A stretch of 64,000 nt of DNA from Eledone cirrhosa. Lineage: Eukaryota. The stretch is from NCBI GenBank assembly GCA_964016885.1, contig OZ024750.1, positions 28,272,001 to 28,336,000 of the forward strand. Reading direction: 5' to 3'. The translations under genes and the position numbers were made by a program. Positions 12,855 through 53,348 of the stretch are shown in pieces. The notes under the pieces are model-generated. The model saw only the letters and a program-made list of their open reading frames with translations, had not been told where the DNA came from and searched no databases. Within the stretch, counting starts at the first letter, position 1. Each line of letters starts with the position of its first letter.

Positions 12855-13072
12855 GTGAAGGCGTGTGGCTGAGTGGTTAGAGAATTGGATTCGCAATCGT
12901 AAGTTTGTGAGTTCGATTCCTGGACCAGGCGATGCGTTATGTCCTTGAGCAAGACACTTTATTTCACGTTGCTCCTTCTACCTGGAGTTTCGACCGATAG
13001 ATAGTATTAGCAATTGGAAAGACCAACGGAAACATTGTTCCCGCGGTCCGATTTGACGAAAGTCGATCGTTC
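12855..13072 (+). mobile_element. SINE2: tRNA head, CORE-like domain and structured tail
   Basis: A box TGGCTGAGTGG, B box GTTCGATTCC, CORE-like TGTCCTTGAGCAAGACACTT; ends GATCGTTCC in TA-rich DNA. Confidence 0.85.
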
Positions 13073-15849: not shown

Positions 15850-15894
15850 CCTTACCTTTTAATTATGTCACTACAAATAACTTACTTGGGGTTT

Positions 15895-16583
15895 TTAATA
15901 GTGTTACTACCAACACCATATCTGGGAGATTTATATAGTGTTCCTACCAACACCAAATCTGGGAGATTTTTATAGTGTTACTACCAACATCATATCTGGG
16001 AGATTTTTATAGTGTTACTGCCAACACCATATCTGGGAGATTTTTATAGTGTTACTCCCAACACCATATCTGGGAGATTTTTATAGTGTTCCTACCAACA
16101 CCATATCTGGGAGATTTTTATAGTGTTACTACCAACACCATATCTAGGAGATTTATATAGTGTTACTCCCAACACCATATCTGGGAGATTTTTGTAGTGT
16201 TACCACCAACATCAAATCTGGGAGATTTATATAGTGTTACTACCAACACCATATCTGGGAGATTTTTATAGTATTACTACCAACACCATATCTGGGAGAT
16301 TTTTATAGTGTTACTACCAACACCATATCTGGGAGATTTTAATAGTGTTATTCCCAACACCATATCTGGGAGATTTTTATAGTGTTACTACCAACACCAT
16401 ATCTGGGAGATTTTAATAGTGTTACTACCAACACCATATCTGGGAGATTTTTATAGTATTACTACCAACACCATATCTGGGAGATTTTAATAGTGTTTCT
16501 ACCAACACCATATCTGGGAGATTTTAATAGTGTTACTACCAACACCATATCTGGGAGATTTTTATAGTGTTCCTACCAACACC
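15895..16583. repeat. 37-bp minisatellite, about 18 copies
   Basis: Unit TAGTGTTACTACCAACACCATATCTGGGAGATTTTTA. Confidence 0.95.
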
Positions 16584-27219: not shown

Positions 27220-29617
27220 TATAATTATCTCACATAATATCTCACATAACATTTACATGATTCTATATTTACTATTGTATTTTTGTGGCAAGGGCTTTAC
27301 CTCACATAATTATCTCACATAATATCTCACATAACATTTACATTACTCTATATTTACTATTGTATTTTTGTGGCAAGGGCTTTACCTCACATAATTATCT
27401 CACATAATATCTCACATAACATTTACATGACTCTATATTTACTATTGCATTTTTGTAGTAAAAGTTTTACCTCACATAATTATCTCACATAATATCTCAC
27501 ATAACATTTACATGACTCTATATTTACTATTGCATTTTTGTAGTAAAAGCTCTACCTCACATAATTATCTCACATAATATCTCACATAACATTTACATTA
27601 CTCTATATTTACTATTGTATTTTTGTAGTAAAAGCTTTACCTCACATAATTATCTCACATAATATCTCACGTAACATTTACATGACTCTATATATACTAT
27701 TGTATTTTTGTAGTAAAAGCTTTACCTCACATAATTATCTCACATAATATCTCACATAATATTTACATGACTCTATATATACTATTGTATTTTTGTGGCA
27801 AGGGCTTTACCTCACATAATTATCTCACATAATATCTCACATAACATTTACATTACTCTATATTTACTATTGTATTTTTGTAGTAAAAGCTTTACCTCAC
27901 ATAATTATCTCACATAATATCTCACATAACATTTACATGACTCTATATTTACCATTGTATTTTTGTAGTAAAAGCTTTACCTCACATAATTATCTCACAT
28001 AATATCTCACATAACATTTACATGACTCTATATTTACCATTGTATTTTTGTAGTAAAAGCTTTACCTCACAATTATCTCACATAATATCTCACATAACAT
28101 TTACATGACTCTATATTTACCATTGTATTTTTGTAGTAAAAGCTTTACCCACACAATTATCTCACATAATATCTCACATAAAATTTACATTACTCTATAT
28201 TTACTATTGTATTTTTGTAGTAAAAGCTTTACCTCACATAATTATCTCACATAATATCTCACATAACATTTACATGACTCTATATTTACCATTGTATTTT
28301 TGTAGTAAAAGCTTTACCTCACATAATTATCTCACATAATATCTCACATAACATTTACATTACTCTATATTTACTATTGTATTTTTGTAGTAAAAGCTTT
28401 ACCTCACATAATTATCTCACATAATATCTCACATAACATTTACATGACTCTATATTTACCATTGTATTTTTGTAGTAAAAGCTTTACCTCACACAATTAT
28501 CTCACATAATATCTCACATAACATTTACATTACTCTATATTTACTATTGTATTTTTGTAGTAAAAGCTTTACCTCACATAATTATCTCACATAATATCTC
28601 ACATAACATTTACATGACTCTATATTTACTATTGTATTTTTGTAGTAAAAGCTTTACCTCGCATAATTATCTCACATAATATCTCACATAACATTTACAT
28701 GACTCTATATTTACTATTGTATTTTTGTAGTAAAAGCTTTACCTCACATAATTATCTCACATAATATCTCACATAACATTTACATGACTCTATATTTACT
28801 ATTGTATTTTTGTAGTAAAAGCTTTACCTCACATAATTATCTCACATAATATCTCACATAACATTTACATGACTCTATATTTACTATTGTATTTTTGTGG
28901 TAAAAGCTTTACCTCACATAATTATCTCACATAATATCTCACATAACATTTACATTACTCTATATTTACTATTGTATTTTTGTAGTAAAAGCTTTACCTC
29001 ACATAATTATCTCACATAATATCTCACATAACATTTACATGACTCTATATTTACTATTGTATTTTTGTAGTAAAAGCTTTACCTCACATAATTATCTCAC
29101 ATAATATCTCACATAACATTTACATGACTCTATATTTACTATTGTATTTTTGTAGTAAAAGCTTTACCTCACATAATTATCTCACATAATATCTCACATA
29201 ACATTTACATGACTCTATATTTACTATTGTATTTTTGTAGTAAAAGCTTTACCTCACACAATTATCTCACATAATATCTCACATAACATTTACATGACTC
29301 TATATTTACTATTGTATTTTTGTGGCAAGGGCTTTACCTCACATAATTATCTCACATAATATCTCACATAACATTTACATGACTCTATATTTACTATTGT
29401 ATTTTTGTAGTAAAAGCTTTACCTCACACAATTATCTCACATAATATCTCACATAACATTTACATGACTCTATATTTACTATTGTATTTTTGTGGCAAGG
29501 GCTTTACCTCACATAATTATCTAACATAATATCTCACATAACATTTACATGACTCTATATTTACTATTGTATTTTTGTGGTACAGGCTTTACCTCACATA
29601 ATTATCCCACATAATAT
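27220..29617. repeat. 85-bp tandem array, about 28 copies, derived from the piggyBac-like MITE
   Basis: Period 85 (27301, 27386, 27471). It runs into the rest of the MITE, which ends AATGCTAAATGGTTAA at 29755. Confidence 0.95.
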
Positions 29618-29851
29618 CGAATCTATGAAATTTTTATATATATTTTGAGAATAATGCCTCAACGCCTCTATGAGTGGCCGGTTACGGCCGGTTTGAACAG
29701 AAAGCGGTGAGAGAATTGTGGCCAGATATGGCCTGTTTTAATGCTAAATGGTTAAACTGTTTCAAAACAAACATACTGGATAGATGCAGCTGGTTCAACA
29801 TACGTGATTGTGCATATTTGTGTGTGTGTATGTATATATATATATATAATA

Positions 29852-33291: not shown

Positions 33292-33521
33292 ATAGGAAAA
33301 AGTATGACCCCGGACGGCAGAGCTCAAGCCGTTTCGACGGCTATTTCTGGACTTAATTTAGTCCTAAATTAAGTCTAAATTAAGTCCAGAAATAGCCGTC
33401 GAAACGGCTTGAGCTCTGCCGTCGGGGTCATACATTTTCCTATTACCCAATCTACTACCCTAAATATTGAGTACTCTGGTGCGTTATGGTCCATTTGGTT
33501 CCTTACACATTTCCTTCGTTA
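33292..33521. mobile_element. PLE family A foldback element in (TA)n
   Basis: Same arms and both fixed ends, in the opposite orientation to 4904-5099. Confidence 0.85.
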
Positions 33522-33859: not shown

Positions 33860-34351
33860 ATGAATCTAAATATAGCAAGGTGCTGTATAGCTACTGTCAG
33901 TAATAATATTCTCTTGTGTATCATGACTTTAAACTATTTGAAAGCTGTGACAACAAACTAGAGAGGCTTATAGGAAAGTGTGTAGAGATGTGTAGAAAGC
34001 ACAGCAACTGCAGAAGTGTGCCAAGTTCACACACCCACCCACTAAAAGGCAAAAAACTAAACAAAACCAAGCAATGACAAATAACGCAAGTACAAAAACA
34101 AAAAATACTGTGAGTGAATTCAACGCAATTCAAACTGCGAACTTGGCACAATTTAAGAACGAACGAATGTCTTTAGTATAAACACACTTGCTGCCTCGGC
34201 AGCTGACTGCTTTTTGAATATGATAAATGAGAAATTACAAGAATTTAAAGAAATAGGCTGGAAAGAGGAGGAAATGATACCAGCATTTAGTATTTGTTTT
34301 GCTACTTCTTACAACAAGAGACAATGTTTAGGTATGAAGCTGTTTGCTGTT

Positions 34352-34880
34352 CTCTTTGTTTAGCCCTAGGTCGAGCTTGATTAGGCAGACCTATGATCAA
34401 ACCAGTACTTGTTACCTCAAAAGACAACGTTTATGTCTTAAGAAGTAGTCTTTGTTCAGCCTAAGGTCGAGCTTGATTAAGCAGATTTATGATCAAACCG
34501 GTACTTCCTATCTCAAAAGACAACGTTTATGCCTTAGGAAGCTGTCGTTGTTTAGCCCTAGGCCGAGCTTGATTAGGCAGACCTATGATCAAACCAGTAC
34601 TTGTTACCCCAAAAGACAACGTTTATGTCTTAAGAAGTAGCCTTTGTTCAGCCCAAGGTCGAGCTTGATTAAGCAGATTTATGATCAAACCGGTACTTCC
34701 TATCTCAAAAGACAACGTTTTTGCCTTAGGAAGCTGTCGTTGTTTAGCCCTAGGCCGAGCTTGATTAAGCAGACCTATGATCAAACCGGTACTTCTTAAC
34801 TCAAAAGACAACGTTTATATTCTAGGGAGTTGTCTTTGTTTAGCCTTAAGTCAAACTTGGTTAAGCAGACTTATGATCAA
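34352..34880. repeat. 96-bp tandem repeat, about 5.5 copies, alternating A/B variants
   Basis: Period 96 (34361, 34457, 34553, 34649, 34745). Confidence 0.9.
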
Positions 34881-51440: not shown

Positions 51441-51589
51441 AACGAAGGAGTTGTGGTAAGGAACCAGATGGACCATAACGCACCAGAGTACTCAATACTT
51501 AGGGTTGTAGAGTGAGTAATAGGAAAATGTTCCAGAAATAGCCGTCGAAACGGCTTGAGCTCTGCCGTCGAGGTCATACATTTTCCTAT
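51440..51589. mobile_element. PLE family A inverted element with asymmetric junction
   Basis: The truncated long arm is joined to a short arm that starts in stem II (TCCAGAAATAGCCGTCGAAAC). Confidence 0.8.
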
Positions 51590-51702
51590 ATATATACATA
51601 TATATATAATGAAGGAAGTGTGGTAAGGAACCAGATGGACCAAAACGCACCAGAGTACTCAATACTTAGGGTAGTAGAGTGAGTAATAGGAAAATGTTCA
51701 AG

Positions 51703-51796
51703 ATGTCGACTGCAGAGCTCACGCCGTTTCGACGGCTATTTCTGGACTAAATTAGATTTTTAGCGTGGTAATAACTAGCCGAACTATTCAAGGGGT
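51703..51796 (-). ncRNA. Degenerate full-length family-A type I hammerhead
   Basis: Minus strand: ACCCC TTGAATA GTTCGGCTA..TAGCCGTC GAAAC GGC gtgagctct GCA GTC. The core matches CUGANGA at 5/7 positions. ACCCC complements the GGGGT that follows GTC in other family-A copies. Confidence 0.6.
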
Positions 51797-52413
51797 AATT
51801 CCTTATATGGGAAGATTGTAGTTGTCAAAAGGATTGGTCAACATTTCTTGTAAACACAATCAAATCTTTCATGGCGGTGGGGAGGGGATAGGAGTGACTG
51901 AACTTGCCTGTAGAACAATGAGGGAGTGGATGGAGCCGGTCAAGCGTTGAAAGTGAATTCTATACAGCAAATTCTAAGGAGTGTGGAAGAAATTAAGCTA
52001 GGTAGAAAGCGGGCGAAAAAAGAATTCTAGAGGGATCGGAGAGTGGGAAGTTATAAAATTAAAAAGTTAATAAATTGAGATTAAAACATTAAAAAATAAT
52101 AAATAAAAATAATAATAATTTTAAAAAATTAAATAAGAAAATAATAATAAGAAAACTAGAGTCTAAAACAGCTGGTATTACGTTTTCGGCCAATGCTATA
52201 TAGAATTTTCTGGGGTGGGGGTACTGAGGCTACAAAAGCAGATGGGCTGCCTAAGGGTAAGCGAAAGAGGGAAAAGGAAAAGGAAGAGGAGAGGGAGTGC
52301 AAGGAAGCGAGAAGAAGAGATAAAGGGAAAAAAGAAAAGAAGTACATCTACCTATGTATGTTGGGGTTTCCCCTATCTTGTTCGGCAAGTGGGGAAAAGA
52401 AGGATGTTACAGT

Positions 52414-52640
52414 CTACCCACCCGGGTCATGAGGGGGTTTGAGAGCGAGGTAAATCCTACGCAATCGATGTTTACATGCGATTACAAGTTCGTCGTTTTT
52501 GTTTAGGAGTTAGTCCTTCGTAAACAGTATTTGTATTGTTTCCTCCGAGCATAAGTTACCCAGACGGCGTCCTCCCGTGTAGGAGTTAGCCCTGGAAAGT
52601 AAACTCCTAGTAATGGTATGTGATGTTATTATCTTGGAGG
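52414..52640 (-). pseudogene. C-terminal part of a PLE GIY-YIG endonuclease region (one stop, one frameshift)
   Basis: Hand translation: LQDNNIT/TITRSLLSRANSYTGGRRLGNLCSEETIQILFTKD*LLNKNDELVIACKHRLRRIYLALKPPHDPGG*. It matches the recalled PLE pattern L.DNNI.Y.I.WSIL.RA..Y..G...CNLCL.EK..IL....LLNKR.EL...CRH. Confidence 0.8.
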
Positions 52641-52793
52641 TTGTGAGTTCGATTGCCGGACCGGGTGATGCGTTATGCCCTTGAGCAAAACACTTTATTT
52701 CACGTTGCTGGAGTTGGGACCGATAGATAGTATTAGCAATTGGAAAGACCAATGGAAACATTGTTTCCTCGGTCCGATTTGACGAAAGTCGAT
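52637..52793 (+). mobile_element. SINE2, 5'-truncated, head-to-head with the PLE remnant
   Basis: Starts at GAGGTTGTGAGTTCGATT, where the PLE ORF remnant breaks off. Confidence 0.8.
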
Positions 52794-52916: not shown

Positions 52917-53072
52917 GGTCGGACGCCATGCTTTCCAGCATAGTTACGTCCCTTTACGATCCGAGTTCAAATCCCGCCGAGGTTGACTTTGCCATTCATC
53001 CTTACGGGGTCGATAAAATAAAGTACCAGTAATGCACTGGGTAATTGCTGGCCTAAAGTAGAAACAATTATT
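52917..53072 (+). mobile_element. SINE1, 5'-truncated
   Basis: B box and core. Confidence 0.8.
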
Positions 53073-53348
53073 ACTTCAGGCAATATTATAAGAAAATGAC
53101 CCTCTCCAAATATATATATATATATATGTATGTGTGTGCGTACATTTATATATATATATGTGTATATATATAAGGGATAACAAAATATCGTTATAGGTAA
53201 TCCAGTTAGAGGTTGTGAATACTTCGTATTATGGACAGTTCTAGCGTACGGCGTTGTTTGACTCAACAAGAGTATATTTATATATATGTATATTTATGTA
53301 TGTATATATACATATATGTATATTTATATGTGTATATATGTATATCTG

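Follow-up and report, generated by a model that had tools for sequence, protein, structure and literature searches.

Introduction

Penelope-like elements (PLEs) of the Hydra clade are defined on their protein by the motifs RW(K/R), DKT, a CxCx5C linker, CxxC-E, N and CxH, and PLE transcription begins in the pseudo-LTR (pLTR), according to the accessible parts of PMC8557442; the Hydra ribozymes listed in File S2 of that paper are all C3-G8. U3-A8 is a known covariation of the hammerhead in Schistosoma PLEs (PMC4209133, accessible text), and natural U3-A8 ribozymes are reported active in the available sections of PMC3088659. In the main text on the Anolis PLE, the C3G and G8C mutants of the ribozyme are inactive and insertion is unaffected (PMC11167929). 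PLE integration, the origin of the tail and of the inverted ends, and the role of the hammerhead are treated as open questions in the accessible published work.

Here we compare with these systems a locus in a window of 64,000 nt (G000:C10:28272001-28336000) from a 3.0 Gb assembly. All window coordinates follow the numbering of this stretch, in which microsatellites are abundant. The features of the locus are summarized in Table 1.

Table 1. Parts of the window copy and its neighbors, in window numbering.
Feature	Position	Strand	Evidence or remark
Separate family-A insertion beside the window copy	51442..51588	both	L arm + S arm, head to head
80-nt tail up to the long (L) end, then (TA)n	51607..51686	-	identical to the 5´ UTR start of full-length copies
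Decayed stem I 3´ strand (GACAT for GGGGT), on to the short (S) end site TTCCTA	51687..51707	-	
GAAA core, stem III with palindromic GAGCTC loop, predicted cleavage after GTC (C17 = 51708)	51708..51730	-	stem III damaged
Short-arm stop zone, 3´ part of stem II/loop II region	about 51731-51756	-	arm-end positions
Stem II (G10.1-C11.1, bulge, CGGCTA/TAGCCG) and long loop II	51731..51784	-	motif reading, folding, pair counts
Core positions 3-9, TTGAATA	51785..51791	-	subfamily state TTGAAAA (U3-A8); A8 to T at 51786 here
Hammerhead stem I 5´ strand ACCCC	51792..51796	-	partner GGGGT pairs in 94% of cells, 31 distinct copies
3´ UTR, ~620 nt, pyrimidine-rich and AT-rich	51797..52413	-	84-90% alignment to 29 other loci
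PLE ORF, last ~75 codons, GIY-YIG endonuclease C-terminus (CxxC-E, N, CxH motifs)	52414..52641	-	P0123 match, tblastn 52623-52417
SINE-like repeat, unrelated	52638..52793	+	abuts the 5´-truncated end head to head, GAGGT overlap

Results

The window copy and its parent element

Judging by its alignments, the minus strand from 52641 to 51607 is the decayed, 5´-truncated 3´ kilobase of a PLE, and the copy itself is an ordinary dead fragment. Its ORF remnant carries a frameshift near the 5´ end, an in-frame TAA (52512-52510) and a C-to-G change in the CxxC motif. The encoded peptide, GNLCSEETIQILFTKD*LLNKNDELVIACKHR, ends ~620 nt 5´ of the ribozyme core. It shares 81% identity over 62 amino acids with the intact genomic ORF P0123 (E 4e-30), and in blastx the region matches 28 of the 120 public homologues at E≤1e-3, so the resemblance is not due to chance. 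The first-pass annotation had likened this peptide to the C-terminus of PLE GIY-YIG regions and had linked it to family A, a group of short copies that keep only the 3´ half of a hammerhead. The matches bear out the PLE origin of the peptide, and the linkage recurs elsewhere: a genome DNA search returned 8,809 first-look candidates, 40 of which were scored, and all 29 non-self loci fetched align from the ORF end, or from inside the ORF, through the ribozyme. Other genomic copies run 5´ into reverse transcriptase (RT) and endonuclease (EN) coding sequence.

The element unit is 3.1-3.5 kb long and consists of a 5´ UTR, a 719-aa RT-EN ORF, a 3´ UTR and a type I hammerhead sequence. Open ORFs of 689-786 codons are present in L087, L089, L090, L094 and four tandem units. 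L089, a 3,118-nt unit with its ATG 190 nt downstream of the cleavage site, encodes 719 aa, and P0123 is this protein minus its Met. Direct pLTRs are found at L031, L033, L036, L038, L041, L089 and L093.

A search with P0001 returned 868 relatives, mostly unnamed, 52 of which were aligned with P0123. The protein contains the RT motifs FDIESYY, MGATDS, YRDDG and FLDVTL, and VIY..YIG together with R616, H620, E675 and N688 is kept in 51 of the 52 homologues. The Hydra motifs appear as RWR, DKT, CNCPDRSIC (CxCx5C), CNLCSEE (CxxC-E), LLNK (N) and CKH (CxH), and they are conserved in the alignment, where the third residue of RWR is R in 12 of 52. The EN of P0123 is C-terminal, with no N-terminal EN and no CxxC between VIY and YIG (no CCHH motif). 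RT motifs A and B lie 63 aa apart, a spacing noted with regard to the insertion-in-fingers domain, which Hydra elements lack. The alignment-based AF2 model of P0123 has a pLDDT of 90.7, and its best Foldseek match is a telomerase RT (TERT 3du5, E 9e-9); a single-sequence fold attempt (pLDDT 33) was unusable. The neighbors in a protein atlas include GIY-YIG clusters at 0.95-0.96. Pfam gave nothing significant for P0001, P0002 or P0123 and found GIY-YIG in just one of the 53 aligned proteins, and a PDB sequence search with the 53-protein profile gave no match at E≤1.

The element has the features of an EN+ PLE: a telomerase-like RT, a C-terminal GIY-YIG, a pseudo-LTR, tandem and inverted 5´-truncated copies and a tail at one end. 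From its sequence motifs it is almost certainly a member of the known Hydra clade, in which it makes a new family, placed by protein motifs rather than by an RT tree. Remnants of another RT-like ORF adjoin copies in the upstream flank of L006, at L032:170-1630 (oriented) and at L033; they possibly represent a second PLE family sharing insertion sites.

The hammerhead and its variant core

The hammerhead words pointed out in the first-pass annotation are all present on the minus strand between 51796 and 51708: ACCCC (51796-51792), TTGAATA (51791-51785), CGGCTA (51781-51776), TAGCCG (51738-51733), GAAAC (51730-51726) and GTC (51710-51708). The window copy does supply the 5´ half of a type I hammerhead and ties family A to the PLE GIY-YIG ORF; the PLE link and the ribozyme half thus stand, while the proposed core type and the stem I of this copy do not. 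Stem I cannot form here, because GTC is followed by GACAT and not by the GGGGT that would pair with ACCCC. The ribozyme has decayed at three sites, position 8 (T), stem III (GCA for GCC) and stem I (GACAT), which leaves U3·U8 at the 3-8 pair. Its stems have pairing probabilities of 0-0.07, whereas those of five of the eight other natural copies folded reach 0.63-1.0. The three-way junction is the MFE fold in five of these eight, and in the remaining three one or more stems are paired otherwise. An Rfam scan of the window gave no family reaching its gathering score.

TTGAATA had been taken for a decayed CUGANGA, which a genome consensus was expected to restore. The core of the window copy's subfamily is instead TTGAAAA (41 of 66 aligned copies by a strict regex, which left 14 further copies unclassified owing to flanking changes), with decay confined to the T at position 8. 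Exact genome searches with identical flanks gave 4,220 UUGANAA, 1,500 CUGANAA and 39 UUGANGA cores; CUGANGA, with a slightly different search pattern, gave 9. Any 7-mer between the same flanks was counted 6,068 times, and reversed control patterns 0 times. Positions 4-6, 8 and 9 are constant while position 7 varies freely, and the register of the core is fixed because position 7 takes all four bases. The usual core of the family is the known U3-A8 variant. The Watson-Crick 3-8 pair is present in the U3-A8 subfamilies (4,220) and absent in the C3·A8 subfamilies (1,500). A mismatch of the C3·A8 type is expected to impair a hammerhead strongly, and the C3G and G8C mutants of the Anolis PLE ribozyme point the same way. 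Our literature search found no measurement of the activity of a C3·A8 core.

That the family has a canonical CUGANGA hammerhead, decayed in the window copy, would agree with the C3-G8 state of every Hydra ribozyme in File S2 (PMC8557442) and with two G8 copies that cluster together in the tree described below (95/78). However, G8 makes up only 9 of 1,509 C3 matches (0.6%) and 39 of 4,259 U3 matches (0.9%), the level expected from mutation after insertion, and this reading is extremely improbable and, for the sampled lineage, refuted. A canonical C3-G8 subfamily was not accepted for the same reason. Since the Hydra clade is defined on the protein, the non-canonical core is treated as a variant of a descriptive trait.

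The three stems, the GAAA and a UH cleavage site together predict a type I hammerhead. In 31 distinct copies, 97% of the cells of the 17 stem pairs are paired. Comparison of the subfamilies shows changes in 2 of 44 core and stem columns versus 17 of 52 other columns (Fisher P 0.0006); the groups are defined by the core, so that core columns are invariant within groups by construction. Covariation gave a null result: a two-sided compensatory change occurs in 0 of 17 stem pairs, and 500 of 500 shuffles score as high. Given this lack of covariation, the conservation of the ribozyme could reflect promoter or protein binding. We infer that the ribozyme is under selection and that it probably cleaves in the U3-A8 subfamilies, with cleavage not being required for insertion.

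Subfamily history of the core

A midpoint-rooted tree was built from 59 endonuclease-coding segments with a core and >380 aligned nt; the window copy is too short and is absent. The tree is ladder-like. It leads from an old UUGAAAA group, which holds the closest matches of the window copy and has end branches of 0.02-0.065, through CUGAGAA on successive rungs to UUGAGAA and UUGAUAA, the youngest of which have identical segments at unrelated loci. With its direction taken from end-branch lengths and no outgroup, the ladder suggests a U3-A8 stage, then the C3·A8 mismatch, then U3-A8 again. The mismatch stage was still amplified, because its 3´ marker has 16,206 genome matches, although some marked copies are already U3. 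Core-bearing arms account for 1,107 of 16,206 (6.8%) with the mismatch-stage marker and 3,112 of 21,713 (14.3%) with the young U3-A8 marker; a by-eye comparison of the first 100 core matches with the first 100 matches of the mismatch-stage marker gave about 8 in 100. The higher share in young U3-A8 arms is a hint only and is confounded by age and other changes. Ribozyme and ORF end also lie farther apart in young subfamilies (about 1,150 nt) than in old ones (about 630 nt).

The persistence of the mismatch over several successive subfamilies, at a stage whose marker has 16,206 matches, raises the question of whether the hammerhead is a catalytically dead relic throughout the lineage, retained because it overlaps the promoter and the RT start region. 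The missing stem covariation points the same way, as does the finding that single mutants at positions 3 and 8 kill the Anolis PLE ribozyme and leave insertion unaffected (PMC11167929, main text). A dead relic is nevertheless unlikely, since position 7 is free while 4-6, 8 and 9 are fixed, position 3 has gone back to U with the 3-8 pair restored, U3-A8 ribozymes are reported active (PMC3088659, available sections) and the MFE structure of five of the eight natural copies contains the three-way junction.

Insertion ends and arm pairing

Loci L002-L105 and the window, with eight overlapping loci dropped, gave 195 arms: 100 with the S end, 88 with the L end and 7 that run into the ORF. S ends lie 17-19 nt after GTC in 75 of 100 cases and L ends 97-99 nt after it in 73 of 88. 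In the young copy L089 the two ends are 19 and 99 nt past the cleavage site, which makes the tail 80 nt long and the same as the 5´ UTR start. One S and one L end are combined in 106 of 108 inverted pairs, made up of 64 of 66 pairs (P about 1e-17) and 46 of 46 short pairs (P about 1e-14) with 4 in common; the script had scored 65 of the 66, and one pair was re-read by eye as L+L. The exceptions are L020, which is rearranged, and L042, which has two long ends. The pair loci were partly picked for holding two cores, which does not bias toward L+S over L+L or S+S. A TA run follows 123 of 124 ends, which indicates insertion into (TA)n.

Of the 46 junctions between short arms, 23 are blunt or overlap by 1-2 nt, and small insertions are seen at others; where overlaps are larger, this is in part an artefact of the junction being palindromic. 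Two such insertions contain a run of 16 A (L128) and repeated 11-nt arm-end copies (window 33335-33401). Long arms pair with long arms above independence (22 diverging pairs and one converging among the first 100 core matches, P≤2e-5), and the two arms of one insertion often share private letters. A model with a leader and a follower, in which the S arm is always longer, was rejected because either arm can be the main one.

At the window locus, the L arm of the neighboring insertion is cut within the tail region and its S arm begins 16 nt 5´ of GAAAC. No S arm was found at the locus for the window copy itself. The SINE-like repeat that abuts it is 5´-truncated, and the 5-nt head-to-head overlap is the geometry expected of an S arm; this repeat carries a B-box-like head, its 3´ end forms several short hairpins, and other window copies lie near 12902, 22636, 31221 and 55586. 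A second abundant SINE-like repeat occupies 52917-53073 and >15 other places, with copies 82-94% alike. Both neighbors presumably resemble octopus repeats. The window also contains tandem arrays at 27221-29618 (85 nt, 28 copies, 96%), 15893-16583 (37 nt, 19 copies) and 34349-34880 (96 nt, 5.5 copies).

Three further observations concern individual loci. Two arms of one insertion, L013:753(-) and 2403(+), have a private stem II change in common and differ in the subfamily-type word after GGGGT, as if they came from two pLTR copies of one RNA. Around the tail, a 9-bp helix (CUCUACUAC/GUAGUAGAG) is predicted at L089:3615-3715 (+) and also at L033, L036, L041 and L093. It can form only where the pLTR continues into the 5´ UTR; both sides of one pair are changed in L036, L033 has a wobble and L041 is decayed. 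The helix is a candidate platform for the two RT starts. L176-L178 (G000:C1:91472001-91495000) form one insertion that comprises four full units plus half of another, with an L end and an S arm in inverted orientation; the full units are 99.8-99.9% alike, all with open frames, and their lengths alternate between 3542 and 3543 nt, a pattern compatible with duplication of a dimer or with a dimeric circle. This head-to-tail array of 4.5 units means that multimers exist in the assembly. Its arm junction holds about 64 tandem copies of a 55-nt ORF piece, which may have arisen by repeated copying by a telomerase-like RT, by later satellite growth or as an assembly artefact.

Short arms and the stop zone

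Exact genome matches number 47,498 for the 3´ half of the ribozyme versus 6,068 for the 5´ half. The sample used for the arm ends covers 124 arms at 63 loci, drawn from the leading matches on contig C1 and from the window. Of these arms, 116 have no core and stop 0-26 nt upstream of GAAAC (G12), with a peak at 12-19, S and L arms alike; one of the eight arms called long is a diverged, unrelated match. Four of five full-length copies, chosen by ORF similarity, extend 370-580 nt beyond this zone at their 5´ end. Short copies carry the diagnostic letters of successive autonomous subfamilies, and their junctions vary from copy to copy with a few recurring.

Together with the arm ends and the paired arm lengths, these letters indicate that family A is the shortest insertion class of the same autonomous element and not a separate family. 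An independent non-autonomous SINE- or retrozyme-like family borrowing the PLE protein could account for the excess of short over long arms, about 7 to 1, and tandem retrozymes are described as PLE derivatives in the accessible part of bioRxiv 10.64898/2026.07.22.740005. It is very unlikely, given that the junctions differ among copies, that the diagnostic letters follow the autonomous subfamilies and that the copies are inverted pairs with half of the ribozyme missing rather than tandem units.

Proposed mechanism

On balance we favor, as fairly probable, a reading in which the window copy is an arm of a Hydra PLE, family A comprises its shortest insertions, and the protein nicks both (TA)n strands with RT primed at two RNA sites 80 nt apart. 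The element protein would nick both strands of a (TA)n tract; RT would start at two fixed positions of the RNA, which correspond to the S and L ends, with each position serving one of the two target strands; and the two cDNAs would be end-joined head to head. The S and L ends are read as putative internal RT start sites by analogy with the Anolis PLE, which uses such sites in vitro. The common template would have its 5´ end in loop II, with a transcription start in the pseudo-LTR, and short arms would be run-off cDNAs. The stop zone is best taken for such an RNA 5´ end: PLE transcripts begin in the pLTR, the zone includes the initiator-like words TCATTT and TTAGTC, and the arm lengths are paired, which a template type common to both arms would explain. 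Against run-off, arm ends spread over 0-26 nt with no single sharp peak. At the 5´ ends of arms, an additional G that might derive from the cap is not separable from partner-arm letters. Since four of five full-length copies pass the stop zone, a second type of template, tandem or circular, is needed; long arms and direct pseudo-LTRs would come from rarer tandem read-through or circular RNAs. Ribozyme cleavage would be helpful but not essential for insertion.

The same element and the same two priming sites would also give short arms if RT stalled on the folded ribozyme, at the loop II hairpin, a tertiary contact or a bound protein. In the predicted loop II hairpin the 3´ strand occupies the stop zone, the distribution of arm ends is broad, and the Anolis PLE ribozyme is protein-assisted (PMC11167929, main text). 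Stalling, though a serious rival, is somewhat unlikely, because by the stop point RT has already traversed stems I and III, both GC-rich, as well as the 3´ strand of stem II, and because independent stalls give no excess of long-long pairs, while either arm can be the longer one.

Returning to two-site priming, a bolder form may be put forward tentatively. In every insertion, each of two RNA sites would prime a single time, the two acting on opposite target strands, and about nine in ten cDNAs would be run-off products that end where transcription starts within the ribozyme, comparable to the strong-stop DNA of retroviruses. The ribozyme would then be a non-essential device for tuning, one that increases the output of long, transmissible copies (about 7-8% of arms at the C3·A8 stage, versus 14% after the pair was restored), probably via circular or multimeric templates.

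Comparison with known systems

Distinctive here are the new Hydra family, its variant ribozyme within a known clade, the mismatch interlude and the regular ends. A literature search, mainly of open-access work, found no report of this family, of an amplified C3·A8 PLE ribozyme or of a count of one S and one L end per insertion. The genome holds at least 47,498 arms. With its tens of thousands of insertions whose ends are fixed, its natural copies that keep open ORFs and its cores that form a natural series (paired, mismatched and paired again), the family makes each of the PLE questions directly testable.

The closest system is the Hydra clade, which includes Hydra-1_Obim of Octopus bimaculoides. 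As described in the accessible parts of PMC8557442, its members share with the present element a single ORF of ~700 aa with RT followed by a C-terminal GIY-YIG, the RW(K/R), DKT, CxCx5C linker, CxxC-E, N and CxH motifs, (TA)n targeting and a 3´ hammerhead. By eye, the N- and C-terminal sequences and the ribozyme differ from those of Hydra-1_Obim, one octopus Hydra family in the supplement. The unit is 3.1-3.5 kb here, whereas it is generally <3 kb in the clade; the core is U3-A8 or C3·A8, in contrast to C3-G8 in all the Hydra ribozymes listed; and loop II is longer, with a stem III of 5-6 bp and a palindromic loop of 7-9 nt.

The Cercyon PLEs of Schistosoma mansoni (PMC4209133) and other U3-A8 ribozymes (PMC3088659) show the same 3-8 covariation, in Cercyon within a PLE type I hammerhead. 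The Cercyon ribozymes are minimal, have almost no stem III and are thought to need dimers, whereas stem III is stable here. An amplified C3·A8 stage is present in this family and finds no mention for U3-A8 ribozymes in the available text of these two papers.

The Poseidon PLE of Anolis carolinensis (PAc; PMC11167929) also has two internal RT start sites bounding a tail, cuts both strands in AT-rich DNA and still inserts when its ribozyme is mutated. PAc belongs to another clade, and its tail is 30-40 nt and lies inside the ORF, in contrast to 80 nt in the 5´ UTR here. The rule of one S and one L end and the stop zone were counted here from genomic copies; the accessible parts of that paper do not describe them, and its supplements may show arm pairing. 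The non-LTR retrozymes, as presented in the accessible part of bioRxiv 10.64898/2026.07.22.740005, are likewise short, non-coding, hammerhead-related derivatives of PLE ends; they are tandem units each with a whole ribozyme, whereas family A consists of inverted pairs in which each arm holds half a ribozyme.
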